A stretch of 64,000 nt of DNA from Pseudomonadota bacterium (GCA_026399515.1 JAPLQT010000121.1:54938-118937); one strand, 5' to 3'; positions 37,261 to 51,932 are shown, numbered from the stretch's first letter. Numbers and translations: made by a program. Notes: generated from the sequence alone by a model not told the origin.

Positions 37261-38202
37261 ATGGGACTTACGGCTTTCATCGACGTAGCGATCGGCCTCA
37301 TAGTGATCTATCTAGGCGCCAGCCTGATGATTACGGTGTTCAACGAGTGGCTGTCCCAAGTCAAGGAATGGCGACAGCAAGTGCTCGCCAAATCGCTTGA
37401 ACAACTTTTCAACGGCCAAGGGTTCGCCCAAGCGCTCGAAAAATTGCCTGGACTCCCGCTCCTGAGCGATCTCCTCAAGACTCAGCGCAGCCAAGCCGAC
37501 CCTATCCTGTTGGCGCGAGGCGTCGCTGCCGCCCTCAGCGACGGCGCCGCCGAGGGCAAGGCAACGCTCGAAGCGGTGCGCGCCGGTCTCCGGCATCTGC
37601 CTGAGTCCCAGGCCAAACAAACTCTTACGGCTCTCGCCGCGACCTGTGCCGACGACCTGGAACGTTTTGTCCGAGAAGCTGGCGCCTCGATCGACCATGC
37701 CCTGACCAACCTCGGGCAGACCTACCGAAACCGCATGCAACTGGTCAGCTTTCTGCTCGGCCTGACCATCTCGATCGCCTTCAACATCGACACCCTGCAC
37801 TTGGTCGACCGCCTTTACACCGACAAGGCCTTGCGCAACCAAGCCGTGGCCATGGCCGAGGGTCTTGCGACCATGACCAAAGCGGAACAACTACAGGACT
37901 GCGCCGCAGAATGGGGCAAGGATCCCAAGTCGGTAAGCCAGGGCTGCACTCCGGTTGCCCGGCTCCTCGACGCCACCATCGCACTCCGGCAGCCCGGCCA
38001 GGCTGCCCTGCCGATCGGCTGGGGCGAAGGCCGTCGACACACGCCCGACACCGCTACTGCCGCCATGCTGAGCCTCCTCGGCTGGTTGATCACCGCCGTC
38101 GCGATCTCCTTCGGCGCCCCGTTCTGGTTCGATCTTCTCGGTAAACTGCTGAGCCTGCGTCGCGGCTTCGCCGCCGCGCCACCGTCAAACTCCAACCCTT
38201 AG
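37261..38202 (+). CDS. Hypothetical membrane protein (N-terminal TM, central TM, C-terminal TM)
   Basis: 313-aa ORF with ATG preceded by GGGGGAGA. Hydrophobic segments are FIDVAIGLIVIYLGASLMITVF, LVSFLLGLTISIAF and MLSLLGWLITAVAISFGAPFWF. No family recognised. It is the first gene after an AT-rich gap. Confidence 0.55.
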   Translation: MGLTAFIDVAIGLIVIYLGASLMITVFNEWLSQVKEWRQQVLAKSLEQLFNGQGFAQALEKLPGLPLLSDLLKTQRSQADPILLARGVAAALSDGAAEGKATLEAVRAGLRHLPESQAKQTLTALAATCADDLERFVREAGASIDHALTNLGQTYRNRMQLVSFLLGLTISIAFNIDTLHLVDRLYTDKALRNQAVAMAEGLATMTKAEQLQDCAAEWGKDPKSVSQGCTPVARLLDATIALRQPGQAALPIGWGEGRRHTPDTATAAMLSLLGWLITAVAISFGAPFWFDLLGKLLSLRRGFAAAPPSNSNP

Positions 38203-38230
38203 CGCCTTGATGAATCTGCCCGGGATATTC

Positions 38231-38587
38231 ATGCGCGCTCGGTTACTTCTCCCTGCCATGGTCGCAGGTTTCGTCGCGGCTTGTACGACGGTGACCATCG
38301 TTGATCGGGAGGGCACGACGAAAGTCTCGCGGCATTTCGGCTTCGTTGGCATCGAACTCAGCCCGCAAACCGATGCGGTGGTGGCCGAAGTCACCAGTCT
38401 CGGCTACCACGGTGGTCCACTGGGGCTCAGCCTGGGTGTCAATCACACGGCCATCGCTGCAACTGCGCGGAATTGCCGTCTCATTGTCTGGCTGCGTAGC
38501 GGTAAAGACGCCGCGCAACTGGATCAACTGCTCGGAAAAACCCCGGGCTTATGCATCGTCAATCCCATCTTGGAGGAAAAACCATGA
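38231..38587 (+). CDS. Hypothetical lipoprotein
   Basis: MRARLLLPAMVAGFVAAC has a lipobox (VAAC). The start could also be at 38207 or 38210. The stop overlaps the next start (ATGA at 38584-38587). Confidence 0.55.
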   Translation: MRARLLLPAMVAGFVAACTTVTIVDREGTTKVSRHFGFVGIELSPQTDAVVAEVTSLGYHGGPLGLSLGVNHTAIAATARNCRLIVWLRSGKDAAQLDQLLGKTPGLCIVNPILEEKP

Positions 38588-39069
38588 ACAAGACCGTACT
38601 CGCAAGCGTTGCGATGATCATCCTGGGCGGATGCGCGGAAATACCGAAGAACATGCCGCTGGTGTTCGGCGAGTCGATCACCGTCGGCATCGGCATCGGT
38701 AGCTCGGCCGCGGATCAGGGCATGGACTTCACGCTGGGCGTCAAGACCAGGGATATTGCGGTGATTCCCGTTGTCGCCTACGACAAGGACGGTCAGCGGG
38801 TGGCGATCTACGCGGAAGTTACCGAGACCACTACCGGGACCGAGTCTTCCGAAACGCAAGGCGACAGGAAGATCGTCACCAAGAATCCGGAGACCAAAGT
38901 CGTCAACAAGGACTCGTATTCTGTGCTCGGCCAGTTCGGCAGTACGACCGATGTCAGTACCAAACGCGTGGGCCTGGGCAAGTTCTTCGCTACCGGCGCC
39001 GCGGCCCAGCAATTGTCTGAAGGATTCGCCGAATGCCTGAAGAAGGATAACTGCGGTTCGACCCGGTAA
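38584..39069 (+). CDS. Hypothetical lipoprotein
   Basis: MNKTVLASVAMIILGGC has a lipobox (LGGC). Thr/Ser/Lys-rich mature part. Translationally coupled to the preceding lipoprotein gene. Confidence 0.6.
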   Translation: MNKTVLASVAMIILGGCAEIPKNMPLVFGESITVGIGIGSSAADQGMDFTLGVKTRDIAVIPVVAYDKDGQRVAIYAEVTETTTGTESSETQGDRKIVTKNPETKVVNKDSYSVLGQFGSTTDVSTKRVGLGKFFATGAAAQQLSEGFAECLKKDNCGSTR

Positions 39070-39149
39070 GTAAGGGTCGGCAGTATAAGCCGAGCCATTA
39101 TTTCGCCTTATAAACCACCGACGCCCACCTTTGCTTGCGAGGAGCCGCC

Positions 39150-39980
39150 ATGGCCACCAGACCTGTTCGCCCGATACATCCTATCCCTCCCATCCATCCC
39201 ATCCTTCCACTTTCCGTCGCGCGGAGCGATAGCTTCGTCGCGACGCTCGATCCCGGAGCCACGGCGACGGGCGACGCCATCGTCGCCCTCGCCAGCCGGC
39301 ATATCGGCGAGGCCTATGTCCTCGGCGCGCGCGCGCCGATGGCCAACGTGGATTGGAAAGGCCCCTGGGACTGTGCCGAGTTCGCTTCCTGGTGCGTGTA
39401 TCAGGCCACCGGCCTGCTCTTCGGCGTCGAACCGCGCCACGACCCGATGCGCGCCGACGCCTACACCGGTTACTGGGCGACGCAGGCGCGAGAAGCCGGC
39501 GCCATGGTCGACGTCGACAAGGCGGCCGGCATCGCCGGCGCGCTGCTGCTGCGCGAACCGCAATCGGGGCGCGTCGGCCACATCGTCATTTCCAATGGCA
39601 AGGGCGGCACTGTCGAGGCCCACAGTTCCAACGACGGCGTCATCGCCGGCATAGTGGACGGCCGCCGCTGGGACTGCGGCATCCTGGTGCCCGGCGTGCG
39701 CTATTTCGCCAGCGCGGCGCCCGTCGCCGTCAAGCCGCCGCCGGCCGGCATGCTGCGCCTGACCGACCCGATGCTGCGCGGTGAGGAGATCGGTCGGTTA
39801 CAGGATTGTCTGGCTGCGCTCGGCTTCAACCCGGGCACGCAGGACGGCGTTTATGGCCCGCAAACCGAAGCCGCTGTCGCCGCCTTCCAGGCCGCCAACG
39901 GCCTGGTCGTGGACGGCGAATACGGTGCCGGCACGCGCAAGGCGCTACGAGCCATGCCAGGCTGTCGCAACAAGCTCTGA
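39150..39980 (+). CDS. Cell-wall hydrolase: NlpC/P60- or CHAP-like cysteine peptidase domain plus C-terminal PG_binding_1 domain, with no signal peptide
   Basis: ATG preceded by GAGGAG. Putative catalytic Cys in GPWDCAEFASWCVY and His in GRVGHIVISNG..VEAHS. C-terminus GEEIGRLQDCLAALGFNPGTQDGVYGPQTEAAVAAFQAANGLVVDGEYG is the classic peptidoglycan-binding repeat. The N-terminus carries a PIHPIPPIHPILP micro-repeat and no hydrophobic leader. Confidence 0.7.
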   Translation: MATRPVRPIHPIPPIHPILPLSVARSDSFVATLDPGATATGDAIVALASRHIGEAYVLGARAPMANVDWKGPWDCAEFASWCVYQATGLLFGVEPRHDPMRADAYTGYWATQAREAGAMVDVDKAAGIAGALLLREPQSGRVGHIVISNGKGGTVEAHSSNDGVIAGIVDGRRWDCGILVPGVRYFASAAPVAVKPPPAGMLRLTDPMLRGEEIGRLQDCLAALGFNPGTQDGVYGPQTEAAVAAFQAANGLVVDGEYGAGTRKALRAMPGCRNKL

Positions 39981-40057: not shown

Positions 40058-42753
40058 ATGAATTCCGCACTTGAGCCGGATAGCTTGCGCATCAAACAAG
40101 CCAGCGAAGCAGTGAACCGCTTGGTGGCTGCCGACCCGCCTCCAGGCCTCGACAGTATCCATGAGGCTGCCCTTGAGTGTTTTGAAGCCGGCGCGCCAGC
40201 GGAGGCGAGCAAGCTGCTGGCGCATTTCGCCGGCCACGGAATTCTCGCGCCGACAATCACCAAGACAGCGTGGTTCATCCGCTTCCAGTCGTGGCTGGAC
40301 GCAGCCAAAGCCGAGGACCTGCTGGCCGAAAAACCACAGTTCACGGCCGGCGATACGAAGACCATCCTGTCCTTGGCCAAGCGCCTCAGGAATGCTTCGC
40401 AGTTCGGGCTATCGCGGCGGCTCTTGGCGCGGCTTGCCGGCGAACGCGAAGACCTGCTCGCAGAGCCAGCCGCCGATGCGGAAGCACAAACGACCTTCGC
40501 CATTCTCCTCCTTGAGAAGTACACCAAAGTCATTCAGGATCTTTCACTAAGCACTTACAAGGACCTGGATCTTCACCCGGCGCGTTCGCTGGCAGAGGCC
40601 GAGCGCCTGCTGGGCAAGATCGGCCTGCGCAAAGAAACATGCGCCGACCCGGAGACACTGGGCCAGGGCGGCGCCGTCTTCAAGCGGCGCTGGGAACTGA
40701 CAGGGCGCCTGGAGCACTTGCAGCAGTCCCTCGCTTTCTACCGCCGGGGATGGGAAGCAAGGAAATCGGATAACACCCGTTGGGACGAAGATGCCTATTG
40801 CGGCGGCAACGCCGCGTTCGTCCTGGACCTGCTGGCGCAACGGATCGATGGCCTGGATGCGGACCAGGCGAGCACCTGGCGTAATGAAGCCAAGACGATC
40901 CGCGAAACCTATGTCGCAGAACTGGAGTCGCGGAAAAGCGATAGCAAGTGGTATTTTGCCAGCCTTGCCGACGGCCACTTCGCACTCGACAACTACACCC
41001 AGGCCGGGCAGTACTACGCTGCGGCAAGCCAAGCCATGGAGGGCGACTGGGAACGTAAGACCATGTTCCTCCAGGCGGTGCAGTTGGCGGGCGCCCGAGG
41101 CATTCCGCTGACCGATCCGAAAGTATTGGCCGCCATCCAGCCGATCCTTGGCGAGAGAACCGCCGCCGCGCTAGCCGGCTTCCGGCCCAAGACCGGCCTG
41201 GCGCTGTCCGGCGGCGGATTCCGCGCCGCCTTCTATCATCTCGGCGTGCTGGCGCGGCTCGCCGACATCGACGCACTGCGCCATATCGAGACGATCTCGA
41301 CGGTATCCGGCGGCAGCATCGTCGGCACCCATTATTTTCTCAAGCTCAAAGCCCTGATCGAAAAGAAGGGCGACGATGTCGCGAAAGAAGACTACCGGCA
41401 ACTGGTACGCGAACTGATCGACCAGTTTCGCGCAGGGGTGGCGACCAATTTGCGCATGCGCGCATTCGTCTCCCTGCGCGCACTGTGGCGGATGCTGTTT
41501 CGCCTCGATTACAACCGTACACTGCGGCTGGGCGAACTCTATGACAGCACTTTTTACGCCCGCATCCTGGACAAGACCGCGACGACCCTGCGCGACCTGA
41601 TCGTTTCGCCCACGGGCGCGACGCGCGCCTTCAGCCCGCGACAGGACAATTGGCTGCGCCGCGCTCAGGTGCCGATACTGCTCATCAACGCCACCAGGCC
41701 TCGTCCGCTGTGCCGGGCCTGTTCAACCCGGTTCCACTGGCTGGCCTCTATGCCGAGCGCGATGTGCAGCTCGCTGACGGCGGCGTCTATGACAACCAGG
41801 GTGTGGATACGCTGTTACAGGAAAGCTGTTCGTTGATCCTCTGTAGCGATGCCTCCGGCCAGCTCTCCGACGATACCTCTCCCTCCACTCTGTTCCTCGG
41901 CGTGCTCCAGCGTGCCAACAACATCACCATGGAACGCGACCGCATCGTCGAGTACCAGGATCTGCGTTCTCGGCTGGAGAATCGCGCGTTAGTCGGCTTG
42001 TTGTTTGTGCACCTGCGCCAGGGCCTCGACATCCGCCGCGTGCCGCCGGAATGCGACAAGCCAAACAGCCCGCCGTCAGCCATCACAAGCCCGCCACGCA
42101 CCGATTACGGGGTGGACAAGGGCATTCAGCGCCTGCTTTCGCAGATTCGTACCGACCTGGATTCCTTCTCGGAGGTGGAGGCGGATGCCTTGATGCTGAG
42201 CGGCTACCTGGCGACGGGAAAACGGATTGGGGAATGCCAGAAGACAATGCCGCCCGGCGAGCGCTGGGGCGGATTCGACACGGGCGCCCCGATAAGCGGC
42301 GACTGGCCTTTCCAGTGGACGGAGACATACATCTGCACCACGCCCGGACCACTGGGATCGCCCAACTCCGCGCGTATCGCCGACGCAATGAACCAGCTTG
42401 AAGCATCGAGCAAGATAGTCGCAAAATACTTCTTCATGAACGTCGGCTTCGCCGCCAAGGCAGCGTTGGTAGTCGCTTCGCTGGCGGAAGTTGCGCTGCT
42501 GGCCTACGCGATTTACTGGCTGGCTATGAATGCCGCCCGCTGGCTGGCGCCTGCGCTGGTCGGCTTTGCCGTGATCAGCATATTTGTGCTGGCCGCACAC
42601 GCGAAGCAACCGAAATGGTGGCCGGTGCTCCAGCGCCTGGGCGAACTCGCAGTCGCCATCGCCGTGTGGCCAATCGCTGCGGCGGGACTCTGGATTTTCA
42701 ATCGACCTTATCTGCGGCACGGCAGCCGGGAACGGTTGGAGAGTATCAAATAG
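40058..42753 (+). pseudogene. Patatin/cPLA2-like phospholipase with helical N-terminal module and C-terminal TM anchors, split by an internal out-of-frame deletion
   Basis: ORF 40058..41836 carries the oxyanion motif LSGGGFRAAFYHLGV and the nucleophile region TVSGGSIVG, then PILLINAT. ORF 41650..42753 (other frame) continues with ASSAVPGLFNPVPL and the catalytic Asp motif LADGGVYDNQG, then three to four TM helices. The total span is 2696 nt, not a multiple of 3. The segment normally between NAT and ASSxxPG is absent (junction near 41690-41705). Confidence 0.7.
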
Positions 42754-42810: not shown

Positions 42811-43722
42811 ATGCCCGACTATCCGCTCCGACTCTTCTCTCCCAGCGACGTCATCAACCCGCCCGACGACGGTACCATTGGGAAGTGGAAGGATTTCCCG
42901 ATCCGTTTTCTCGCTCAGGGCGACTCTTGGTTCTCCATCGGCGCCGTGCCGCCGTGGGCGACCTCGAACCTGCTCCAGCAGATCGTTCTCAGCCTGGAGG
43001 CTTGCGCGATCAACTGCGCCAACCCTGGCGCCCGGTTGGCACGGATGGTCGACTGGAAGCTCGACGCCGATTTCATGCGCTTGCTGACCGGCAAGTTCGC
43101 CTACAAGTGGGACGGTATCCTGCTCTCCGGCGGCGGCAACGATCTCATAGCGGCAGCGGGCGTATTGCCCGTCAATAGCGACGGCACGCCGGTGCCGCTG
43201 GAATCGCGCCTGCTCTTGAAGCCTGACGAATGGGGTCCGGTGGAACAGCGAGCAGCTCGCTACCTCAGCGACGCCGGCTGGAATACTTTCCGCGCCCACC
43301 TCGGGCCACAGTTTGACGACGTCGTGGCTTTCCGCGACCGGGACGTCAACCGGGACGTGCCGCTGTTCTGCCATAGCTACGCCTACCCCATGCCACGCAA
43401 TGCTCCCGCTTCAGCCTTGTTTCACGTCGGCCCGTGGTTGTATCCTTCCATGGTGGCCTACAAAATTCCGCCCGCCGATTGGCTGGGCGTCGCCACGGCT
43501 TTGATTGACCGCTTGGCGGCCTTGCTCAAGGACATCGTCGCAAAGCACAACATCGCCGGCCGGCGCGTATACCTGATCGAGACCCAAGCGAAACTCACGC
43601 CGGCCCAGGCCGGTACCACAGACCGCAGCAACGACTGGGAAAATGAGATACACCCGGCGCCCGGCGGCTACCAGAAACTGGCAGACCTGTGGCGGCCGGT
43701 GATCGAGGCGCAGGTTCCGTAG
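42811..43722 (+). CDS. SGNH/GDSL-type hydrolase (lipase/esterase)
   Basis: 303-aa ORF with ATG preceded by AAGGAGA. Block I FLAQGDSWFS, block III LLSGGGNDL and block V NEIHPAPGGYQKLA (Asn where the canonical Asp of DxxH sits). No signal peptide. Confidence 0.65.
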   Translation: MPDYPLRLFSPSDVINPPDDGTIGKWKDFPIRFLAQGDSWFSIGAVPPWATSNLLQQIVLSLEACAINCANPGARLARMVDWKLDADFMRLLTGKFAYKWDGILLSGGGNDLIAAAGVLPVNSDGTPVPLESRLLLKPDEWGPVEQRAARYLSDAGWNTFRAHLGPQFDDVVAFRDRDVNRDVPLFCHSYAYPMPRNAPASALFHVGPWLYPSMVAYKIPPADWLGVATALIDRLAALLKDIVAKHNIAGRRVYLIETQAKLTPAQAGTTDRSNDWENEIHPAPGGYQKLADLWRPVIEAQVP

Positions 43723-43923: not shown

Positions 43924-45273
43924 TTGTCCACTAACCGACCGGTTCCACTCGTGAATCCGCTTTGTTTCATCCTCATGCCCTTCGGTCGCAAACCCACTGG
44001 CGATGGCCGGGTGGTGGACTTCGATGCGATCTATGAACACGTCATCAAGCCCGCAGTTGTTGCGGCCGGCCTGGAGCCACTGCGCGCCGACGAGGAGATC
44101 GCCGGCGGGGTGATCCACAAGGCGATGTTCGAGCGGCTGATCCTCTGCGAGTATGCCATCGCCGACCTCACTACGGCCAATGCCAATGTCTTCTACGAAT
44201 TGGGCTTGCGCCATGCGGTGCGGTCCTCGGCGACCCAGTTGATCTTCGCCGAGGGCTGGGGGCAGTTGCCGTTCGACGTGACGCTGTTGCGGGCGCTGCC
44301 CTACCGGCTGGGGCCGGACGGCACGCCGACCGATGTGGCAACCGCCAGCGCCGCCCTGGCAGGCAAGCTGCGCGCGGCGCGGCAGGCACTGCCCGACAGC
44401 CCGGTGTTCCAGATGGTCGAGGGCTTTCCGGACATCCAGCGGCTGAAGACCGATGTCTTCCGCGAGCGGGTGCGTTATGCGGAAGACATGAAGGCGCGGC
44501 TGGCGGCGGCGCGGCGAGCTGGCGTCGGTGCGGTGGCGGCGATGGAGGCGGACTTGGGCGACATCGGCCACGCCGATGCGGCGGTGGTGATCGATCTTTT
44601 TCTCTCATACCGTGCGGTGAAGGCCTGGCAGGCGATGGTTGATCTGGCCGGCCGCATGGCGCCGCCGCTGGCCGCGACAGTGATGGTGCGGGAGCAGTTG
44701 GGACTGGCGCTGAACCGGGCCGGGCGCGGCGAGGAGGCGGAAGCGGTGCTGCTGACGCTGATCGCCGAGCGCGGCGCCAGCAGCGAGACCTGCGGCATCC
44801 TCGGCCGCGTCTATAAGGATCGCTGTGAGACCGCTTCGCAACGAGGCGAAACCTCCTTGGCGCGCGGCCTGCTGGAAAAGGCTATCGGCGCCTATTTGAA
44901 AGGCTTCGAGGCCGACTGGCGCGACGCCTATCCGGGTGTGAATGCCGTTACGCTGATGGAATTGAAGGAACCGCCGGACCCACGCCAAGGCGCGCTGCTG
45001 CCGGTGGTGATCTATGCAGTGGGACGGCGCATCGCCGCCGGCCAGCCGGATTACTGGGACTATGCGTCACGTATGGAACTGGCGGTGCTGGCACGCGATC
45101 AGGCCGGTGCCGAGGAGGCACTCGCCGATGCACTCGCGCATGTGCGCGAAGCGTGGGAGCCGGAAACCACGGCGCGCAATCTGCGGCTAATCCTCGCTGC
45201 CAGAACGCAGCGGGGCGAACAAACCGAGTGGATACGCCAGATCGTGGCAACGCTGGAAAATAGGGCGCACTGA
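43924..45273 (+). CDS. DUF4071 / MAP3K-TRAF-binding-domain-like protein: N-terminal TIR/nucleoside-2-deoxyribosyltransferase-like Rossmannoid module plus helical-repeat (TPR-like) region
   Basis: 449-aa ORF. CFILMPFGRKP...VDFDAIYEHVIKPAVVAAGLEPLRADEEI..GVIHKAMFERLILCEYAIADLTTANANVFYELGLRHA matches my memory of the bacterial DUF4071 N-terminal pattern. Later ETCGILGRVYKDR...AIGAYLKGFEADWRDAYPGVNAVTL matches its helical part. The start is TTG at 43924 or GTG at 43951. Confidence 0.6.
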   Translation: MSTNRPVPLVNPLCFILMPFGRKPTGDGRVVDFDAIYEHVIKPAVVAAGLEPLRADEEIAGGVIHKAMFERLILCEYAIADLTTANANVFYELGLRHAVRSSATQLIFAEGWGQLPFDVTLLRALPYRLGPDGTPTDVATASAALAGKLRAARQALPDSPVFQMVEGFPDIQRLKTDVFRERVRYAEDMKARLAAARRAGVGAVAAMEADLGDIGHADAAVVIDLFLSYRAVKAWQAMVDLAGRMAPPLAATVMVREQLGLALNRAGRGEEAEAVLLTLIAERGASSETCGILGRVYKDRCETASQRGETSLARGLLEKAIGAYLKGFEADWRDAYPGVNAVTLMELKEPPDPRQGALLPVVIYAVGRRIAAGQPDYWDYASRMELAVLARDQAGAEEALADALAHVREAWEPETTARNLRLILAARTQRGEQTEWIRQIVATLENRAH

Positions 45274-45327
45274 GCTGCCGGGTAGCCGCATAGTGCGTGG
45301 TACTTGGAGTCGGGAGGGATATAGGTC

Positions 45328-46020
45328 ATGAAAATATTCTTGGCGTTTTCATTCCGCGACGAGGACAAGCTTTTGGCAAGCCAAGTAGAGAGACTGCTGG
45401 CCAGCCAGTTCGTCCAGTTGCAAACCGGTGAGCAACTCGGCGGCGCGCTACTTACCGACGCGGTTAAAAAGCGGATCGAGGACAGTGACGCCCTGATTGC
45501 CTTGTTGACTCGGCGGGAACAACTTGCGGCAGGTGGCTGGACAACCCACCCGTGGGTGCAGGATGAATTGACCTGCGCACGCACCAAGGGCAAGCTCGCC
45601 ATCGCCCTCGTCGAGGAAGGCGTTGACGCCGCAGGCATGTTCGCGCCCCATGAACATATTCCGCTGAGCCGGACCAACCCTGTGGAAGCGCTACTGCGTC
45701 TTGCGGAAACCGTGGCGGAGTGGAATGGCGACCGGGGTCGAATGATCAAGGTTCGACTCACCCCGGAAGACATTGCCGAGAAGCTTGGACAAGATAGCGT
45801 CCCTTGTCGTCACCGCTTTGTGAAACAGGGCAAGCCGACTTCATGGCGCGAGGCAATGCCTTTCACCGAACCAGGCGGAACCTTCGTCTGGGTGGACGGC
45901 ATTCAGGATGAACACCTTATCCAGGTTAAGGCTGATCAATCCGGGCAGACTTGGCAATCGTTCGTCACCCCCCAATGGGTGCAAGTGCAGTTGAAGAAAA
46001 CGGGAGGTATCGTCCCATGA
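45328..46020 (+). CDS. TIR-like domain protein with about 95-aa unassigned beta-rich C-terminal domain
   Basis: 230-aa ORF. MKIFLAFSFRDEDKLLASQVERLL...SDALIALLT...HPWVQDELTCARTKGKLAIALV follows the bacterial TIR_2 pattern (beta-A FxSxxxxD, then W-x-x-x-E). GGGAGGG RBS. The stop overlaps the next start. Confidence 0.6.
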   Translation: MKIFLAFSFRDEDKLLASQVERLLASQFVQLQTGEQLGGALLTDAVKKRIEDSDALIALLTRREQLAAGGWTTHPWVQDELTCARTKGKLAIALVEEGVDAAGMFAPHEHIPLSRTNPVEALLRLAETVAEWNGDRGRMIKVRLTPEDIAEKLGQDSVPCRHRFVKQGKPTSWREAMPFTEPGGTFVWVDGIQDEHLIQVKADQSGQTWQSFVTPQWVQVQLKKTGGIVP

Positions 46021-46817
46021 GCATTCGAATCGAGCAGAACAGCAGCTACACGGGTAACCAGCGGTGGGATTGGGAGGTGTGGCTTGCCGGTCCGATAGAC
46101 GAGCTGGACCAGATCGAGCATGTGACTTATACGCTGCATCCGACATTCAGCGAGCCAGTGCGGGAAATAAGCTCCCGCGAGAATGGCTTCCGCCTGAAAT
46201 CCGATGGCTGGGGCGAGTTCACCCTGTACATCGACATCGCCCGCAAGGATGGTGGTCATGAGGAACTGAGCCATGAGTTGAAATTGGCCCCTCAGCCGAA
46301 AGATCCTCCCGCAATACTCGGATTCGAGGTGGACATGGATCATTTGCTTGTCATGGGAGATGACCTTCTAAGGGACGCAGCGCCGGTAATCAAGCGAGCA
46401 GGAAAGGCAATGATCGACGTGGCCGTCGCGAAGATCGCTGAACACCTGCCCACCACGACGGTTTTTGTTTCAGGCGGAGTTGCCGACGCCGATGCGGTCA
46501 GCCGCCTGAAAACATCCCTTGGCCATCTGAAAGTGAATATCCTCAGCGACGACGAGGTTCCTGCCGGCGTTCCATACCAGGCGCACATCGCCAACCTGAT
46601 CGGCCAGGCGGATGTTGCGACCTTCCTCGTTTCCGGACGCCCCAGTCGCTGGATGACCCAGGAGATCGAAGTTGCCCAACGCCACGGAAAGCGCATCGTG
46701 CCCGTGTTGGTAGGCAAAGACAGCGTGTTGCCGGAAGCATTGCGGGGCATGGCAAGTGTCCGCATCGAAAATCTGGACAGCGTTGCCGAGTTGACGAAAA
46801 ATATATTGGGCAAGTGA
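46017..46817 (+). CDS. Prokaryotic YEATS (pYEATS)-like domain fused to a C-terminal TIR-like domain
   Basis: I placed the start at the ATG giving MSIRIEQNSSY (ATGA overlap with the upstream stop). YTGNQRWDWEVWLAGPIDELDQIEHVTYTLHPTFSEPVREI...GFRLKSDGWGEFTLYIDI matches my memory of the pYEATS family. The C-terminus VFVSGGVADADAVSRLKTSL...ADVATFLVSGRPSRWMTQEIEVAQRHGKRIVPVLV is TIR_2-like. Confidence 0.65.
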   Translation: MSIRIEQNSSYTGNQRWDWEVWLAGPIDELDQIEHVTYTLHPTFSEPVREISSRENGFRLKSDGWGEFTLYIDIARKDGGHEELSHELKLAPQPKDPPAILGFEVDMDHLLVMGDDLLRDAAPVIKRAGKAMIDVAVAKIAEHLPTTTVFVSGGVADADAVSRLKTSLGHLKVNILSDDEVPAGVPYQAHIANLIGQADVATFLVSGRPSRWMTQEIEVAQRHGKRIVPVLVGKDSVLPEALRGMASVRIENLDSVAELTKNILGK

Positions 46818-47074
46818 CGCACCGCGTCGTGGGGCTGACCTGACTCCTGGAATGGAGATGCGGCTCGGCAAGCACTCTTTCCCGTTGTCCACATGCGGTG
46901 GCATCTTCAGAACACACTCGTTCGGGAAGATGCAAGTGCTCTGCACTCGGGGCGTTCACGAAAACGGGCATCTCCAATTTTGCGTCCACTGTCCGCCAGA
47001 CGACAGTGAAACGTCGTCGAGGCGACTAGGATACCGACCATAAAAAGACTTTGTTGTCCTTAATGGGAGGTTTC

Positions 47075-48601
47075 ATGGGATCGTCACTTGCAGAAAATGG
47101 ATTGGGCCGCCAACAAGACCCGGGCGGCATCGTTAGCTATTTCCTGGGAAATATCCGTGCGCAGGGCATGACGGCGCGCAAGACGCTCATCGGCTACGTC
47201 GCCGCGTGGGCGGGGCTGGCAACGATCCTGTGGGGCGTGGATCTGTCCCCGGCGATAACCACCTATCCGGCCAAAGCCGTGTTGGCCGTGATTGTCTGGG
47301 CTTGCATCGTCTGGGTGACCGAGGCCGTGCCGGTGGGAGTGACCGGCCTGATAATCCCGATGCTATTGGTGGTGACGAAGGCGGTGCCGAAGATTCCGGA
47401 GGCCTTCGGCGGATTCGTTCTCGACGTCAGTTTCATGACCTTGGGGGCGTTCATGTTCGCTGCCATCCTCAGCGCGGCGAAGCTCGATACGCGCATTGCC
47501 CTTTTCGTCCTGAACAAGATGAAGGCGGTGCGGGTCGGCAAAATCATCGTCGCATTATTTTCCACCAACATGGCCTTGTCGCTTGCGGTGCCGGCGGCCA
47601 ACGCGCGTTCAGCGACCATGTTGCCGATTGTCAATGGCGTGATCGGCCTGTTCGGCGACGGCGCGGCGGAGAAAAACGCGAAGAAGGCGATCGTCATTTC
47701 TTGCATCGTCTATGCCACGATGGTGGGCGGCATCCTGTTCCTGACCGCCCATCTGCCCAACCTCCTGATGGTGGGGCTGTTCGACAAGCAACTCGGCGTG
47801 CACATATCGTGGATGCAATGGCTGTGGCTGCACCTGCCGATACTCGGCATGTTCCCGGTGATGTACTGGGTCATGAGCTTCACATTTCGCAGCAATAGCG
47901 TGGAAGTTCCAGGCGGTCTGGAACGGATACGTAAGGAACAGGACGAACTTGGCGAGACGCGCAGCCATGAGTGGGTGATCCTCGCCATCTTTGCCTTTGT
48001 GGCGGTGATGTGGATGCTGGAGGACGTCCACAAGATCAAGAGCGGAATGATGACCTTGATGGCGTTGGCGGTGTTTTTCATTCCCGGCATCTTCCCGCTG
48101 AAATGGGTCACGGTGCAGAACAAGACCATCTGGGGTACTTGGCTCTTGCTGTGTGGCGCCCTGTCCTTGTCGTCCGCCATGGGATCGTCGGGGCTCGCCA
48201 GTCAGATGGCGGCGGTCATCTATCCATGGGTGGCGGGGCATGGCTGGATCGCGGCGCTGCTCATTATCATGTTGGCCACCCGCATCATCCGCCTCGGCAT
48301 GCTGAGCAATATCGCCTCCGTCGCCATGCTGGCGCCTGTGTTGCTGGAAATGGCGCCTTTGCTCCACATGAATCCGGTCGCGCTTACCCTGCTGGTCGGA
48401 AACGTCGATACCTTCGCGTTTCTGATTCCGACCCAGGTGGTGGCGGGCGTCGTCGCTTACAGCACCAACACCTTCAGCATGTGGGACTACTTCAAGGTCG
48501 GACTGCCGACCGTCATCGCGGCCATCCTATGGAGCGTATTCGTAATGGCGCCCTGGTATGCATACAACGGCTTCCCGGTCTGGGAGCCGCTGCTGAAATG
48601 A
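47075..48601 (+). CDS. DASS/SLC13-type anion:cation symporter family permease
   Basis: About 508 aa from the ATG preceded by GGGAGG (the ORF-track start at 47051 is TTG). Polytopic. CIVWVTEAVPVGVTGLIIPMLL resembles the DASS signature region. Substrate not inferable. Confidence 0.6.
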   Translation: MGSSLAENGLGRQQDPGGIVSYFLGNIRAQGMTARKTLIGYVAAWAGLATILWGVDLSPAITTYPAKAVLAVIVWACIVWVTEAVPVGVTGLIIPMLLVVTKAVPKIPEAFGGFVLDVSFMTLGAFMFAAILSAAKLDTRIALFVLNKMKAVRVGKIIVALFSTNMALSLAVPAANARSATMLPIVNGVIGLFGDGAAEKNAKKAIVISCIVYATMVGGILFLTAHLPNLLMVGLFDKQLGVHISWMQWLWLHLPILGMFPVMYWVMSFTFRSNSVEVPGGLERIRKEQDELGETRSHEWVILAIFAFVAVMWMLEDVHKIKSGMMTLMALAVFFIPGIFPLKWVTVQNKTIWGTWLLLCGALSLSSAMGSSGLASQMAAVIYPWVAGHGWIAALLIIMLATRIIRLGMLSNIASVAMLAPVLLEMAPLLHMNPVALTLLVGNVDTFAFLIPTQVVAGVVAYSTNTFSMWDYFKVGLPTVIAAILWSVFVMAPWYAYNGFPVWEPLLK

Positions 48602-48681
48602 CGCTTGCGGGCCAGGTGCTGGCGCGGGGTTACAATGGAGGCTCGAATTTCGCCCACCAATGCCCCGCGCGAGGCTCCGGC

Positions 48682-49368
48682 ATGGAAAAACAGTTCGACC
48701 CGAACGAAATCGATCTCGTCCGGCAGTTGCCCGAGAGCGAGAGAACGCTCCTGGAGCGTCATTCCATCCGCAAGAGATACCCCCGGTCGACCATTATTCA
48801 TTCGCCGGGAGATCTGGGCGGGATGGTGAATTTCGTTCTCAGCGGGCGGGTGAAGATTTACAACTTGTCCGCCTGCGGCAAGGAAATCATCTATCGCTTC
48901 TGCAACTCCAACAGCTTCTTCGGTGTTGCGGAGATATTCGGCGGCGAGGAGCGGGAGGTCTTCGCCGGGGCAATGGAAGACACCGAAGTAATGTGTACGG
49001 ACAAGCAGTACTTCGAGAACTTGATCCTTCGCAACCCGGCGCTTACGCTGACGGTGATGCGCATCCTGGGCAACAGGGTGCGACAAGCGCACAAGGCGAT
49101 TCAAAGCTTCGTGTTCTGCGATGTGCGCACCCGCCTCGCCCAGTTGCTCATCAAGCTTGCCCAGATCAACGGCGTCGAAAATCCGGACGGGACGATCACC
49201 TTGCGCAACCGATTCACCCATCAGGAGATGGCCAACATGATTGGCGCCATTCGCCAGACCGTCTCGGAAAATATCAACCACTTCAAACGCAGCGGCTATA
49301 TCCGGGTTGCCGGAGAACGCATTACCCTGATCGACCTCGCCAGCCTCAAGAACCTCCTCGACGATTAG
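48682..49368 (+). CDS. Crp/Fnr family transcriptional regulator
   Basis: I placed the start at the ATG giving MEKQFDPNEIDLVRQLPE. cNMP-binding-like fold text and C-terminal HTH THQEMANMIGAIRQTVSENINHFKRSGYI. The upstream part of ORF 47971..49368 is out-of-frame overlap with the transporter. Confidence 0.8.
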   Translation: MEKQFDPNEIDLVRQLPESERTLLERHSIRKRYPRSTIIHSPGDLGGMVNFVLSGRVKIYNLSACGKEIIYRFCNSNSFFGVAEIFGGEEREVFAGAMEDTEVMCTDKQYFENLILRNPALTLTVMRILGNRVRQAHKAIQSFVFCDVRTRLAQLLIKLAQINGVENPDGTITLRNRFTHQEMANMIGAIRQTVSENINHFKRSGYIRVAGERITLIDLASLKNLLDD

Positions 49369-49471
49369 GCATCGCCTCCCGCGTTATCGCGGTGCATGTC
49401 GTCCAGCAGACAGACCCGGGATGCGCTCTGCGCTAGCATCCATCCACTGTCTATCAACGTGGAGAACTGGC

Positions 49472-50620
49472 ATGGCAATCGAACTCAAGGAGCGGCCGAT
49501 TTTCGTGATCGGCTACGAACGGTCGGGCACGACCCTTCTGATGGCGATGCTTGGTTGTCATCCGCGACTGTCCATGCCCGAGGTGGGATGGTTGTTCCCG
49601 CGCATCTATCCCTGGCGCCACACCTATGGAGATCTGTCGGTGGACGGCAATCTTCGCACCCTGGCGAGCGAGATGCTGTTCGGCCTCAACCAGCCTCTCT
49701 GGGGTATGAGCCTGAACCCGGCAACCGCCGTTGACGAGATACTCTCCCTCGCGCCGGAACGCAGCTTCGCCGGCATATACACCGCCATGCATCTGCGCTA
49801 CGCCAAGGAATTCGGCAACAAGCCGCGCTGGGGACAGAAGACTCCCAATAATCTCTATTTCGTTCCCCAGATATTGGAAAACTTCCCCAACGCCCAGTTC
49901 CTCTTCATCACCCGCGACGGCCGGGATGCTTGCGCCACCAGTATCGAATCGGCATTCGGCGCCGGCAACATCTATGGCGCGGCCTATACCTGGAACGCGG
50001 CCAATGCGTTCGTCATGCCGTTTCGGCAGCGTTATGGCGGTACCTCGACCTGGTTCGACGTCGGGTATGAAGAGTTGGTGCGCGAACCCAAGCGGGTTCT
50101 GCAACAGGTCTGCGACTTCCTGGGCGAATCCTTCGCGCCGGAGATGATGGATTTCTTCCGCACGCCAACCGGCGTGGCGCGAGGCAAGCAACGCGACCAT
50201 GCTCCTCTTGGCCACGCGGTTTCAGACCAGTACGTGGGGCTATACAAGAATTTGCTCAGCCTGCGCGATCAGCAGATCTACGCGGCGGTCGCCGGGGAAA
50301 CCCACCGCAACGCGGGTTACGATCTGGATGTCGAACCGCTCGCCATTTCGGAGCAGGACAAGGCCTTATGGTGGGAGTGGGATGGGCGGTACCGGGCCGC
50401 GCGGCTGGACGGCCCGGACGGCCATCTGGTTTTCGAAAGCTACCGCGACTGGCTGGTGGACCAACGCCAGGTGCGCAAGCAAAAAGGCATCTGGTCGGAC
50501 AAGGACGCCACCCACGAATTTCCCGTCGGGCACGTTGACGAGGAGATCATCGTCGGATTCCGCGCCTGGAAAAAATGGAAGGAGCACTTCAGCATCAAGC
50601 GGCAATACAACAAGAAGTAG
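49472..50620 (+). CDS. Cytoplasmic PAPS-dependent sulfotransferase family protein
   Basis: The start ATG giving MAIELKERPIFVIGYERSGTTLL is preceded by GGAGA. 5'-PSB-like loop YERSGTT and 3'-PB-like FLFITRDGRDA. No signal peptide. Confidence 0.7.
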   Translation: MAIELKERPIFVIGYERSGTTLLMAMLGCHPRLSMPEVGWLFPRIYPWRHTYGDLSVDGNLRTLASEMLFGLNQPLWGMSLNPATAVDEILSLAPERSFAGIYTAMHLRYAKEFGNKPRWGQKTPNNLYFVPQILENFPNAQFLFITRDGRDACATSIESAFGAGNIYGAAYTWNAANAFVMPFRQRYGGTSTWFDVGYEELVREPKRVLQQVCDFLGESFAPEMMDFFRTPTGVARGKQRDHAPLGHAVSDQYVGLYKNLLSLRDQQIYAAVAGETHRNAGYDLDVEPLAISEQDKALWWEWDGRYRAARLDGPDGHLVFESYRDWLVDQRQVRKQKGIWSDKDATHEFPVGHVDEEIIVGFRAWKKWKEHFSIKRQYNKK

Positions 50621-50771: not shown

Positions 50772-51932
50772 TCAAAGAACATTCGGCATTCTGCACAGAT
50801 TGCCCGCGGGGAAGGCCGTGATTCCCTCGGCCAGCGGCCACGGCGGCTCGCTGCCGTGGCAGACGACGTACAGGTGATCGAGCTTGAGCACCTCGCGTGC
50901 CGAGCGCATGGATGGCGTGACTGCCGGAGAGCGGGTCAGCTTGACTTCGAAGCCGATGCGTTCCGTCCCGCGCAGAATCAGCAGATCCAGCTCGCCGCCG
51001 GTATGCACGCCCCAGAACCAAGCACCATCGCGCCCAACGCCGGAACGGCGGGCAAGTTCGAGGACGATCAGTCCCTCCCAGGAGGCGCCGCACTTTGGAT
51101 GGGCGCGCAGGGCATCCTGGCTGCCGATACCGAGCAGGCTGTGCAGCAGTCCGGTATCGGCGATGTAAACCTTGGGCGCCTTGATCTCCCGTTTGCCGAC
51201 ATTGGCATGCCACGGCCGCAGGCGGCGAACCAGGAAGGTGCCTTCCAGCACATCCAGCCAGCGCGACACGGTCTTGTCGGTGACGCCCAGCGAACGGGCA
51301 AGCTCGCTGCCATTCCAGGTTTGCCCGTGGTAGTGGGCGAGCATGGTCCAGAAGCGACGCATGGTCGCCGCCGGCAGCGCAAACCCGAGTTGCGCCAGAT
51401 CGCGCTCGAGATAGGTGCGGATCAGCGCGGCGCGCCATTCGGCGCTGGCCGTATCGGTCGCGGCCAACAAGGCGCGCGGAAAGCCGCCGCGCAACCAGCG
51501 CGTGTCGATGTCGCCGACGCCAATCTCGTCCAGGCCAAAGCCTTCGAGCTCGTGAAAACCAATCCTGCCGGCCAGCGACTCGGAGGCGTGGCGCATCAGT
51601 TCCGGCGATGCGCTGCCGAGTATCAGGAAACGCGCCGGACTATCGGGGCGATCCGCCAGCACCCGCAGCAGCGGAAACAGATCTGACCGCCACTGGATCT
51701 CGTCAAGTACCACCAGGCCGCGCAGCGGACGCAGGGCGAACGAGGGGTCGGCCAGTCGCGCCAGATGGTCCGGATCTTCCAGATCGAACAGTGTGCACGG
51801 CCCGTCCCAGACGGCGGATAACTGCCGCGCCAGCGTGGTCTTGCCCACCTGGCGCGGACCGAGCAAGGCCACCACGGGGAAGTCGGTGAGCCGACGGCGC
51901 AGGCGATCGAGATGCGAGGAGCGGGAATCCAT
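50772..51932 (-). CDS. AAA-type ATPase with C-terminal DUF4143 domain
   Basis: 386-aa ORF with Walker A LLGPRQVGKTTLA, Walker B-like LVVLDEIQ, and the typical size and layout of the widespread ATPase-DUF4143 family. Confidence 0.7.
   Translation of the reverse strand: MDSRSSHLDRLRRRLTDFPVVALLGPRQVGKTTLARQLSAVWDGPCTLFDLEDPDHLARLADPSFALRPLRGLVVLDEIQWRSDLFPLLRVLADRPDSPARFLILGSASPELMRHASESLAGRIGFHELEGFGLDEIGVGDIDTRWLRGGFPRALLAATDTASAEWRAALIRTYLERDLAQLGFALPAATMRRFWTMLAHYHGQTWNGSELARSLGVTDKTVSRWLDVLEGTFLVRRLRPWHANVGKREIKAPKVYIADTGLLHSLLGIGSQDALRAHPKCGASWEGLIVLELARRSGVGRDGAWFWGVHTGGELDLLILRGTERIGFEVKLTRSPAVTPSMRSAREVLKLDHLYVVCHGSEPPWPLAEGITAFPAGNLCRMPNVL

Follow-up and report, generated by a model that had tools for sequence, protein, structure and literature searches.

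The closest described relatives of the three-gene operon that we analysed at positions 43,924 to 46,817 of a 64,000-nucleotide (nt) stretch, hereafter the window, from a Pseudomonadota metagenome-assembled genome (MAG; GCA_026399515.1, JAPLQT010000121.1:54938-118937) are type VIII Thoeris and the BcTir/BcTpr system of Bacillus cereus. In type VIII Thoeris, the TIR protein ThsB is paired with ThsI, described as 'CMP hydrolase and TPR'; such systems provide E. coli with defence, canonical cyclic ADP-ribose (cADPR) is formed by their TIRs only after infection, ThsI is activated by canonical cADPR, and cells with a system of this type are poisoned by externally added cADPR (Yirmiya et al. 2025, bioRxiv 10.64898/2025.12.03.692087). 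The same authors name Thoeris types by the effector, give the TIR sequences of two validated type VIII systems (from Yersinia and Pseudomonas) in their Table S1, and mention an earlier prediction by Aravind and colleagues that this TPR domain acts in bacterial TIR signalling (10.64898/2025.12.03.692087). In BcTir/BcTpr, a protein combining a MilB-like glycosidase with TPR is paired with a TIR protein (Liu et al. 2023, bioRxiv 10.1101/2023.05.26.542521). BcTpr binds cADPR with a dissociation constant (Kd) of 1.9 uM and depletes NAD+, the substitutions N82A and E86A abolish both NAD+ depletion and defence, and it is BcTpr, not BcTir, that makes a cADPR isomer, the two proteins acting as a complex; the catalytic Glu of BcTir is naturally replaced by Lys, and Patatin-Tpr assemblies are listed in the same work (10.1101/2023.05.26.542521).

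We propose, with a probability of roughly 0.6, that the three genes of the window, which we call g1, g2 and g3, encode a Thoeris-type anti-phage signalling system, a variant related to type VIII, in which g2 and g3 would make an NAD-derived signal that activates g1. Conflict systems with the same domain vocabulary were reportedly described by Burroughs and Aravind in 2020, in a purely computational work which is said to cover TIR, TPR-S and prokaryotic YEATS (pYEATS) domains, to treat TPR-S as a sensor of NAD-derived signals and to point out a link to ASK; we take this work to be reference 39 of Yirmiya et al., and Liu et al. likewise credit it with having predicted the part of this TPR in TIR signalling.

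The three-gene operon and its proteins

The three genes lie on the same strand with the following features; numbers of amino acids (aa) refer to each protein, and E-values follow the name of the matching family.
43924-45273, + strand: g1, 449 aa, TTG start.
43957-44340, + strand: g1 N-domain, about aa 12-139, NDT/DNPH1/MilB-like N-glycosidase (Pfam, profile comparison).
44500-45255, + strand: g1 C-domain, about aa 193-444, ASK1-like TPR-S (Pfam TPR-S 2e-24).
45328-46020, + strand: g2, 230 aa, ATG start.
45328-45735, + strand: g2 TIR, aa 1-136, with putative catalytic E80.
45739-46002, + strand: g2C, aa 138-225, a family-specific all-beta C-terminal domain in the AlphaFold model.
46017-46020, + strand: ATGA stop/start overlap of g2 and g3, read directly in the sequence, with GGGAGG upstream.
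46017-46817, + strand: g3, 266 aa, ATG start at 46017.
46017-46286, + strand: g3 pYEATS, aa 1-90 (Pfam pYEATS 1e-21, YEATS 9e-14).
Within g3, + strand: disordered linker, aa 97-132, in the AlphaFold model.
46458-46811, + strand: g3 TIR, aa 148-265 (TIR_2 1.6e-9), with putative catalytic E216.

An earlier note, made from the sequence alone, had described this operon as encoding a DUF4071-like protein with helical repeats, a TIR protein and a pYEATS-TIR protein, all without a canonical partner. The motifs that it quoted, namely, CFILMPFG...NVFYELGLRHA, HPWVQDE, WDWEVWL, VTYTLHPTF, GWGEF and SRWMTQE, are all found in the translations, and its 54-nt gap and ATGA overlap are both found in the sequence. 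The description of g1 agrees with its Pfam matches, MAP3K_TRAF_bd (the DUF4071 of that note, E = 7e-41) and TPR-S. When a profile built from 24 g1 homologues was compared with the sequences of the PDB, ASK1 (8qgy) was matched at E = 3.6e-16 over both the N-domain and the TPR; however, ASK1 carries a His at the position of a Glu in g1 (FYHLG versus FYELG), and it continues into PH and kinase domains, which g1 does not. The same profile matched Rcl/DNPH1 weakly (E about 0.3), with the YELG motif of the latter falling on FYELG of g1. We take this YELG motif to be the one that carries the catalytic Glu of Rcl/DNPH1. The corresponding catalytic motif of g1 reads N86-x-N88-x3-E92, its two Asn and its Glu are invariant in the 24 homologues, and their spacing is the same as that of N80/N82/E86 in BcTpr. 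In addition, the N-domain of g1 is 34% identical (E = 3e-24) to a ThsI-like protein encoded in an E. coli plasmid locus (L091; loci are designated by L numbers throughout). In architecture, active-site motif and homology, g1 is thus a predicted ThsI-type effector, and since NDT-like proteins with TPR-S are the effectors of both type VIII Thoeris and BcTir/BcTpr, the partner that the earlier note had found to be missing is g1 itself. No system-level or family name for g1, g2 or g3 was found in PADLOC-DB 2.0 and NCBIfam, the PADLOC match of g1 being to a generic 'Effector / TIR' model.

In the profile searches, of the kind that the earlier note had proposed, g1 and g3 matched their families far beyond chance, but g2 did not, its TIR_2 match (E = 1e-3) being under the Pfam cut-off. 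Nevertheless, in the AlphaFold model of g2, which has a predicted local distance difference test (pLDDT) score of 91.7, the N-terminal part is an alpha/beta domain resembling TIR and the C-terminal part is all-beta; Foldseek matched this model to the TIRs of SARM1, RPS4 and RPP1 and to NDTs, and HHalign aligned g2 with the TIR of g3 at a probability of 93%, pairing E80 with E216. The predicted model and the profile alignment thus confirmed the TIR assignment of g2 despite its sub-threshold Pfam match. The best PDB match of the full-length g2 model is a NAD kinase (E = 4e-6), covering both domains with a root-mean-square deviation (rmsd) of ~16 A, which may be a domain-level resemblance only, due to a shared layout of an alpha/beta domain and a beta-sandwich. 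As for g2C, it has no Pfam family match, and Foldseek searches of g2 against the PDB and BFVD assigned no fold to it, the matches being TIR/NDT folds and NAD kinases. Among 1.84 billion proteins, its family is represented by 116, and almost every one of these is ~230 aa long with the same architecture. A relation of g2C to YEATS by divergence was considered and rejected, the HHalign probability being below 1%.

The AlphaFold model of g3 (pLDDT 80) shows two domains separated by the disordered linker. Its N-domain was matched by Foldseek to the YEATS domains of GAS41, Yaf9 and Taf14 at an rmsd of 2-3 A and 21-25% identity, and the g3 profile matched Yaf9 at E = 4e-11, with LHPTF and GWGEF of g3 aligned to LHDTY and GWGEF of Yaf9. 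Hence, judging from the model, the N-domain is a genuine YEATS fold, in agreement with the earlier assignment to the prokaryotic YEATS family, and it has the predicted Ig-like fold and the motifs of the aromatic acyl-lysine pocket by which membership of YEATS (PF03366/PF20305) is recognised. It therefore resembles the eukaryotic readers Yaf9, Taf14, GAS41 and AF9 in fold as well as in the pocket motifs LH-x-(S/T)-(F/Y) and GWGEF, but differs from them in its bacterial origin, its fusion to a TIR and the lack of a chromatin context. Among 27 homologues of g3, W212 and E216 are invariant and H41, F44 and W65 nearly so, while E80 of g2 is invariant in 38 homologues; the W-x-x-x-E glutamates noticed earlier in both TIRs are therefore well conserved. 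We equate E80 and E216 with E642 of SARM1 by motif position only, not by residue-level superposition. With a predicted flavodoxin-like fold and the conserved Glu in both g2 and g3, the features expected of a NAD+-cleaving TIR appear to be present in each, and the intact Glu at the catalytic position argues for enzymatic TIRs.

No experimental study of a pYEATS-TIR protein turned up in the literature that we searched, in line with the earlier note, nor did a report of what any prokaryotic YEATS domain binds. The fusion itself occurs in three separate architectures, namely, the g3 type, TIR_2-pYEATS, and pYEATS with a CAP12 TIR. The pYEATS architectures other than the g3 type that were seen in metagenomic sequences are a tandem double pYEATS of ~235 aa (L123/L124), a TIR_2-pYEATS protein of 286 aa and a protein of 568 aa in which pYEATS is followed by a CAP12/Pycsar-type TIR (L125/L127, L128).

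The spacing between g1 and g2 is exactly 54 nt, with a Shine-Dalgarno sequence GGGAGGG preceding the ATG of g2, and the ATGA overlap implies probable translational coupling of g2 and g3. All three proteins match deposited MAG proteins, with differences in the starts. The deposited match of g3 is 280 aa long and starts upstream of 46017, at 45975; as the alignments of the 27 homologues begin at the ATG at 46017, with an invariant M1, the deposited start is probably too far upstream. The g1 protein is identical to its deposit over the 432 aa of the latter, which begins at the ATG at 43975, so that the conserved beta-1 strand is cut off; since the conserved 'PLCFvLMPFG' (here PLCFILMPFG) of this strand precedes that ATG, the true start is likely upstream, at TTG 43924 or GTG 43951. 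The GC content at third codon positions is 0.65-0.66 in g2 and g3 versus ~0.80 in g1 and most neighbouring genes, suggesting that the cassette of g2 and g3 was recently acquired by horizontal transfer. No promoter or terminator signal above chance was found around the operon.

The g2-pYEATS cassette and the exchange of TIR modules around g1

The families of g2 and g3 are both small, with 95 and 27 (pYEATS-TIR) word-indexed matches, respectively. Proteins of the g2 type and pYEATS proteins are encoded together in 36 loci, with g2 directly upstream in nearly all of them; L106 and L107 have the opposite order. The two genes are tightly joined, often by a 4-nt overlap, as in L084, L085 and L086; in L089 and L090, at most 10 nt separate them. 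Two kinds of pYEATS partner occur, namely, pYEATS-TIR proteins of ~260 aa and pYEATS proteins of ~100 aa that stand alone; because of the latter, we consider g2 (TIR plus g2C) and pYEATS as the conserved core, in which the second TIR is optional. g2C and pYEATS are always found together, with a TIR beside them. We counted TPR-S proteins within the fetched stretches of those 19 cassette loci for which 5 kb or more of sequence was available, and found one in 13 of them, lying within 400 nt of the cassette in nine and 1.3-2.8 kb away in four; these genes are usually directly adjacent to the cassette and co-directional with it. The survey of the trio that the earlier note had called for returned the exact order g1-g2-g3 in L007 (Nitrospira), L084 and L100, where g3 is 37-57% identical to that of the window. 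A pair or fusion of TIR and nSTAND1-WD40 often stands beside the cassette (L085, L086, L087, L094 and a 76.9-kb contig); none does in the window.

By comparison, g1 belongs to a large and strongly conserved family with at least 6,897 matches at E <= 1e-10, identities of 53-74% being seen in many phyla, its closest relatives being in Sulfuritalea and Rhodocyclaceae. We collected 80 genome loci around g1 homologues, 72 of which could be analysed for counts with local hidden Markov models (HMMs) in a 5-kb range. Within this range, a TIR gene is present in 28 loci and a second TPR-S protein in 23. Of the 80 loci, 10 have an intact gene for a TPR-S-patatin protein next to the g1 homologue and an eleventh has a fragmented one; intact copies are also found in L081-L085, L090 and L100.

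The TIR module next to g1 varies even between close relatives. In L081, from a Sulfuritalea MAG, g1 is 86% identical to that of the window and its context is the same, with a TPR-S-patatin gene upstream and genes for a DUF4143 ATPase and an IcmF-like protein downstream; yet a TIR-TGT/OGG/QueC/ThsB_TIR block upstream of g1 takes the place of g2 and g3. This block is laid out as follows.
L081 3644-6868 and L092 442-3605: TIR-TGT-like protein (~480 aa), OGG/DNA lyase (~237 aa), QueC-like protein (~200 aa) and a small ThsB_TIR protein.

The block is annotated in these two loci, and the layout of the open reading frames (ORFs) points to the same block upstream of g1 in L007, L016, L033, L036 and L042. 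It corresponds to the Cap9/10/11-type arrangement of Thoeris to which Yirmiya et al. refer (10.64898/2025.12.03.692087). In L082/L083 (3016-6975), where the g1 homologue is 82% identical to g1 of the window, an LRR-Roc-COR-TIR protein of ROCO type is encoded between the TPR-S-patatin gene and g1, and L077 holds a simple pair of g1 and ThsB_TIR. Such swapping of the TIR module around a near-identical g1 would fit a model of different TIR sensors feeding one kind of effector.

Comparison with the validated systems was made through the ThsB proteins. The locus L091, on an E. coli IncHI plasmid, carries genes for two ThsB TIRs that share 56% and 61% identity with validated ThsB of Yersinia/Pseudomonas, together with a SLATT gene and the gene for the 402-aa NDT plus TPR-S protein that we regard as ThsI-like. 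The ThsB_TIR proteins beside genes of the g1 subfamily in L077, L084 and L081 are 28-33% identical to validated ThsB (E from 1e-13 to 1e-22).

Proposed signalling and competing explanations

The operon resembles type VIII Thoeris in that an effector with an NDT-like N-domain and a C-terminal TPR region, g1, is encoded in one operon with TIR genes, g2 and g3; likewise, a SLATT effector (ThsH-like), as described for cADPR systems, co-occurs with related genes in L085 and L092. On the other hand, the partners here are a TIR plus beta-domain protein and a pYEATS-TIR protein, not a small ThsB_TIR protein, the TPR region of g1 has diverged from that of the enterobacterial ThsI-like protein, and a second, broken TPR-S-patatin effector is present. 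With BcTir/BcTpr the operon shares the pairing of an N..N...E glycosidase and TPR protein with a TIR gene, and a Patatin-Tpr protein, but BcTir carries a Lys where g2 and g3 keep the Glu, and the Bacillus system has one TIR gene instead of two and no YEATS domain. With type I Thoeris (ThsA with SIR2/Macro-SLOG, plus ThsB) it would share the logic of TIR sensors sending a cADPR-type signal to a separate effector, and multiple TIR paralogues are common there; however, the locus has no SIR2, Macro or SLOG domain, the receptor would be TPR-S, and the effector is NDT-like. The earlier note had stated that its reading would be refuted if the trio mapped to an already named system; this applies to the core of g1 and a TIR, which points to type VIII Thoeris, but not to the pair of g2 and pYEATS-TIR, for which no PADLOC 2.0 system was matched. 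None of the sequence motifs of g2 and g3 was found in the portion of the Thoeris tables supplied by Yirmiya et al. that our search covered.

In the mechanism that we favour, g2 and g3, being translationally coupled, would probably form a hetero-oligomeric sensor, which may detect infection through g2C and/or the pYEATS domain. On infection, the TIRs of g2 and g3 would turn NAD+ into a messenger of the cyclic ADP-ribose type, perhaps cADPR itself by analogy with type VIII Thoeris. The TPR-S region of g1 would bind this messenger and release the N-terminal glycosidase (N86/N88/E92), which would then degrade NAD+ and/or nucleotides, so that the infected cell could no longer support phage replication. 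The TPR-S-patatin protein would formerly have been a second, membrane-directed effector responding to the same signal, and is broken in this genome.

A specific form of this mechanism is that the pYEATS domain, through its predicted intact acyl-lysine-type pocket, recognises an acylated or similar planar-amide mark or molecule arising in infection and switches on synthesis by the TIRs through g2C. We regard this form as speculative and would not bet on it; however, the conserved pocket makes it a concrete, testable hypothesis, and if it were true, a prokaryotic YEATS domain would be given a function for the first time, and a chromatin 'reader' fold would be directly linked to innate immune sensing.

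Several observations weigh against the proposed Thoeris-type system. The TPR region of g1 has no pairwise similarity to that of the enterobacterial ThsI-like protein of L091, hence the ligand of g1 may differ from cADPR. Neither g2 nor g3 belongs to the ThsB clade: no PF08937 (ThsB_TIR) match was found in either at E <= 0.01, BLASTP against validated type VIII ThsB gave E = 0.002 for g3 and nothing significant for g2, and the PADLOC ThsB model matched g3 at 1e-3 only. This lowers the case for type VIII membership but does not exclude it, since the types are named by the effector. The maker of the signal is itself disputed between the two precedents, being the TIR protein ThsB according to Yirmiya et al. 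(10.64898/2025.12.03.692087) and BcTpr itself according to Liu et al. (10.1101/2023.05.26.542521). Furthermore, g1 is often alone, with neither a TIR gene nor a second TPR-S protein within 5 kb in 29 of 72 loci (~40%), a figure to be read as an upper bound because the local TIR HMM may miss divergent TIRs. Conversely, an intact TPR-S protein is absent from the fetched stretch around the cassette in 6 of the 19 longer loci (L086, L094, L089, L093 and L109/L110), with a truncated g1 only in L093. Beside the cassette in L086 and L094, both of which lack TPR-S, lies a TIR plus nSTAND1-WD40 pair, and the 76.9-kb contig that shares the genes of L089 encodes a TIR-nSTAND1-WD40 protein and a WD40 protein in the same position. 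With TPR-S absent from these loci and nSTAND1-WD40 genes beside some of them, the cassette may work without g1.

The last of these points leads to a different explanation, in which g2 and g3 are an autonomous two-gene abortive-infection module that senses infection by its pYEATS and g2C domains and whose TIRs themselves deplete NAD+, as TIR effectors do in TIR-STING, SPARTA and Pycsar, and in which g1 lies next to the module in a defence islet without being part of it. The cassettes without an intact TPR-S protein are what it would predict, as is the existence of a conserved, tightly joined core in 36 loci, and both TIRs retain the Glu needed for NAD+ cleavage. Nevertheless, we consider it unlikely: a TPR-S effector accompanies 13 of the 19 longer loci, usually adjacent and co-directional, the gene order is identical in three distant loci, and the pYEATS partner has no TIR in several loci, which makes the second TIR dispensable and sensor-like rather than a bulk NADase. 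Another explanation transfers the BcTir/BcTpr model to this locus, so that g1 both makes a cADPR isomer and depletes NAD+, while the main role of g2 and g3 is to bind g1 as its regulators or as sensors, rather than to be enzymes. Liu et al. assign both activities to BcTpr in complex with BcTir, and 29 of the 78 genes of this kind in their set stand alone (10.1101/2023.05.26.542521), as do many genes of the g1 subfamily in ours; g1 also carries the BcTpr catalytic motif. What makes this model improbable to us is that BcTir has exchanged its Glu for Lys whereas g2 and g3 keep an invariant Glu, and that phage-dependent cADPR was found in cells with type VIII TIR proteins (Yirmiya et al., 10.64898/2025.12.03.692087). 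Finally, the operon might have nothing to do with defence but serve NAD signalling in stress or in normal physiology, in which case it would correspond in bacteria to the ASK signalosome; this would fit the homology of g1 to ASK1 across the N-domain and TPR, as well as the position of the locus among chromosomal housekeeping genes, with neither a tRNA gene nor a flanking repeat of mobile-element type. We find this hardly credible, given that related architectures are experimentally anti-phage, that the modules next door in the relatives, namely, Cap9/10/11, SLATT, nSTAND-WD40, patatin and toxin-antitoxin genes, are typical components of conflict systems, that the atypical third-position GC of g2 and g3 suggests horizontal gain, and that close relatives have exchanged the TIR module.

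Under the Thoeris-type reading that we prefer, published experiments provide a precedent for the effector side, namely, an NDT-like glycosidase controlled by TPR-S, and the locus overall is therefore not of a new kind; the new part is the rare pair of g2 and pYEATS(-TIR) as presumed sensor, together with the g2C domain. Because the same effector is served elsewhere by ThsB, Cap9/10/11-TIR and LRR-Roc-COR-TIR, these loci offer a comparative setting for TIR sensing and messengers, in which one could ask how TIR sensors detect phage and whether all of them make one messenger. They also bear on the evolutionary relations of bacterial TIR/TPR-S systems to the animal ASK signalosome, and of bacterial to eukaryotic YEATS readers.

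Genes surrounding the operon

The following features lie around the operon in the window.
40058-42753, + strand: disrupted gene for a TPR-S-patatin phospholipase with a C-terminal membrane region (TPR-S 7.5e-11, Patatin 5.5e-11).
42811-43722, + strand: 303-aa ORF between the TPR-S-patatin gene and g1, with weak GDSL/SGNH similarity.
50772-51932, - strand: DUF4143/AAA_14 ATPase, PADLOC candidate system PDC-S01 (1.4e-79).

The TPR-S-patatin gene, which was overlooked in the earlier note, ends 1.2 kb upstream of g1 and runs in two frames with a break at 41695/41698. In a tblastn search with the intact 961-aa homologue of L082, residues 1-554 were aligned in frame +2 and residues 611-961 in frame +1, so ~56 codons (L082 residues 555-610) are absent from the stretch that separates the Ser motif from the DGG Asp. 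Consequently, the Gly-rich loop, the Ser motif and the DGG Asp of a TPR-S-patatin effector do not lie in one intact ORF here, and the break is either real decay or an error of the MAG assembly. The 303-aa ORF matches Lipase_GDSL_2 (0.022) and Lipase_GDSL (0.11), both under the cut-off, and contains GDS.../GGGND/..H motifs; as no homologue of it was found in the 80 g1 loci, we list its membership of the system as uncertain.

In agreement with the absences listed in the earlier note, no SIR2/Macro-SLOG, STING, SAVED, cyclase or STAND gene was found by Pfam in the 22 main ORFs of the ~32-57 kb region, nor was a caspase-like effector, a CD-NTase or a pyrimidine cyclase, and PADLOC on the seven ORFs nearest the operon returned no Type I/II/IV Thoeris, CBASS, Pycsar or Avs. 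The sole PADLOC matches there are PDC-S01 on the DUF4143 ATPase, the generic model on g1 and the weak ThsB match on g3. No tRNA genes, Rfam RNAs or repeats bounding a mobile element were found around the operon or in the wider window, which is ordinary chromosome. Downstream of the operon are genes for a Na/sulfate symporter, a Crp-type regulator, a sulfotransferase, the DUF4143/AAA_14 ATPase and an IcmF-like mutase. Since a gene of the same kind as that of the ATPase directly follows g1 in L081, the window holds, relative to that genome, an insertion of g2-g3 and of the symporter, Crp-type regulator and sulfotransferase genes, the latter three at 47051-50620. Upstream of the patatin gene, the region 37261-39980 contains a run of small ORFs that lack a Pfam family and resemble membrane proteins or lipoproteins, after which comes a 281-aa protein with a PG_binding_1 match (3e-19) and a sub-threshold CHAP match.

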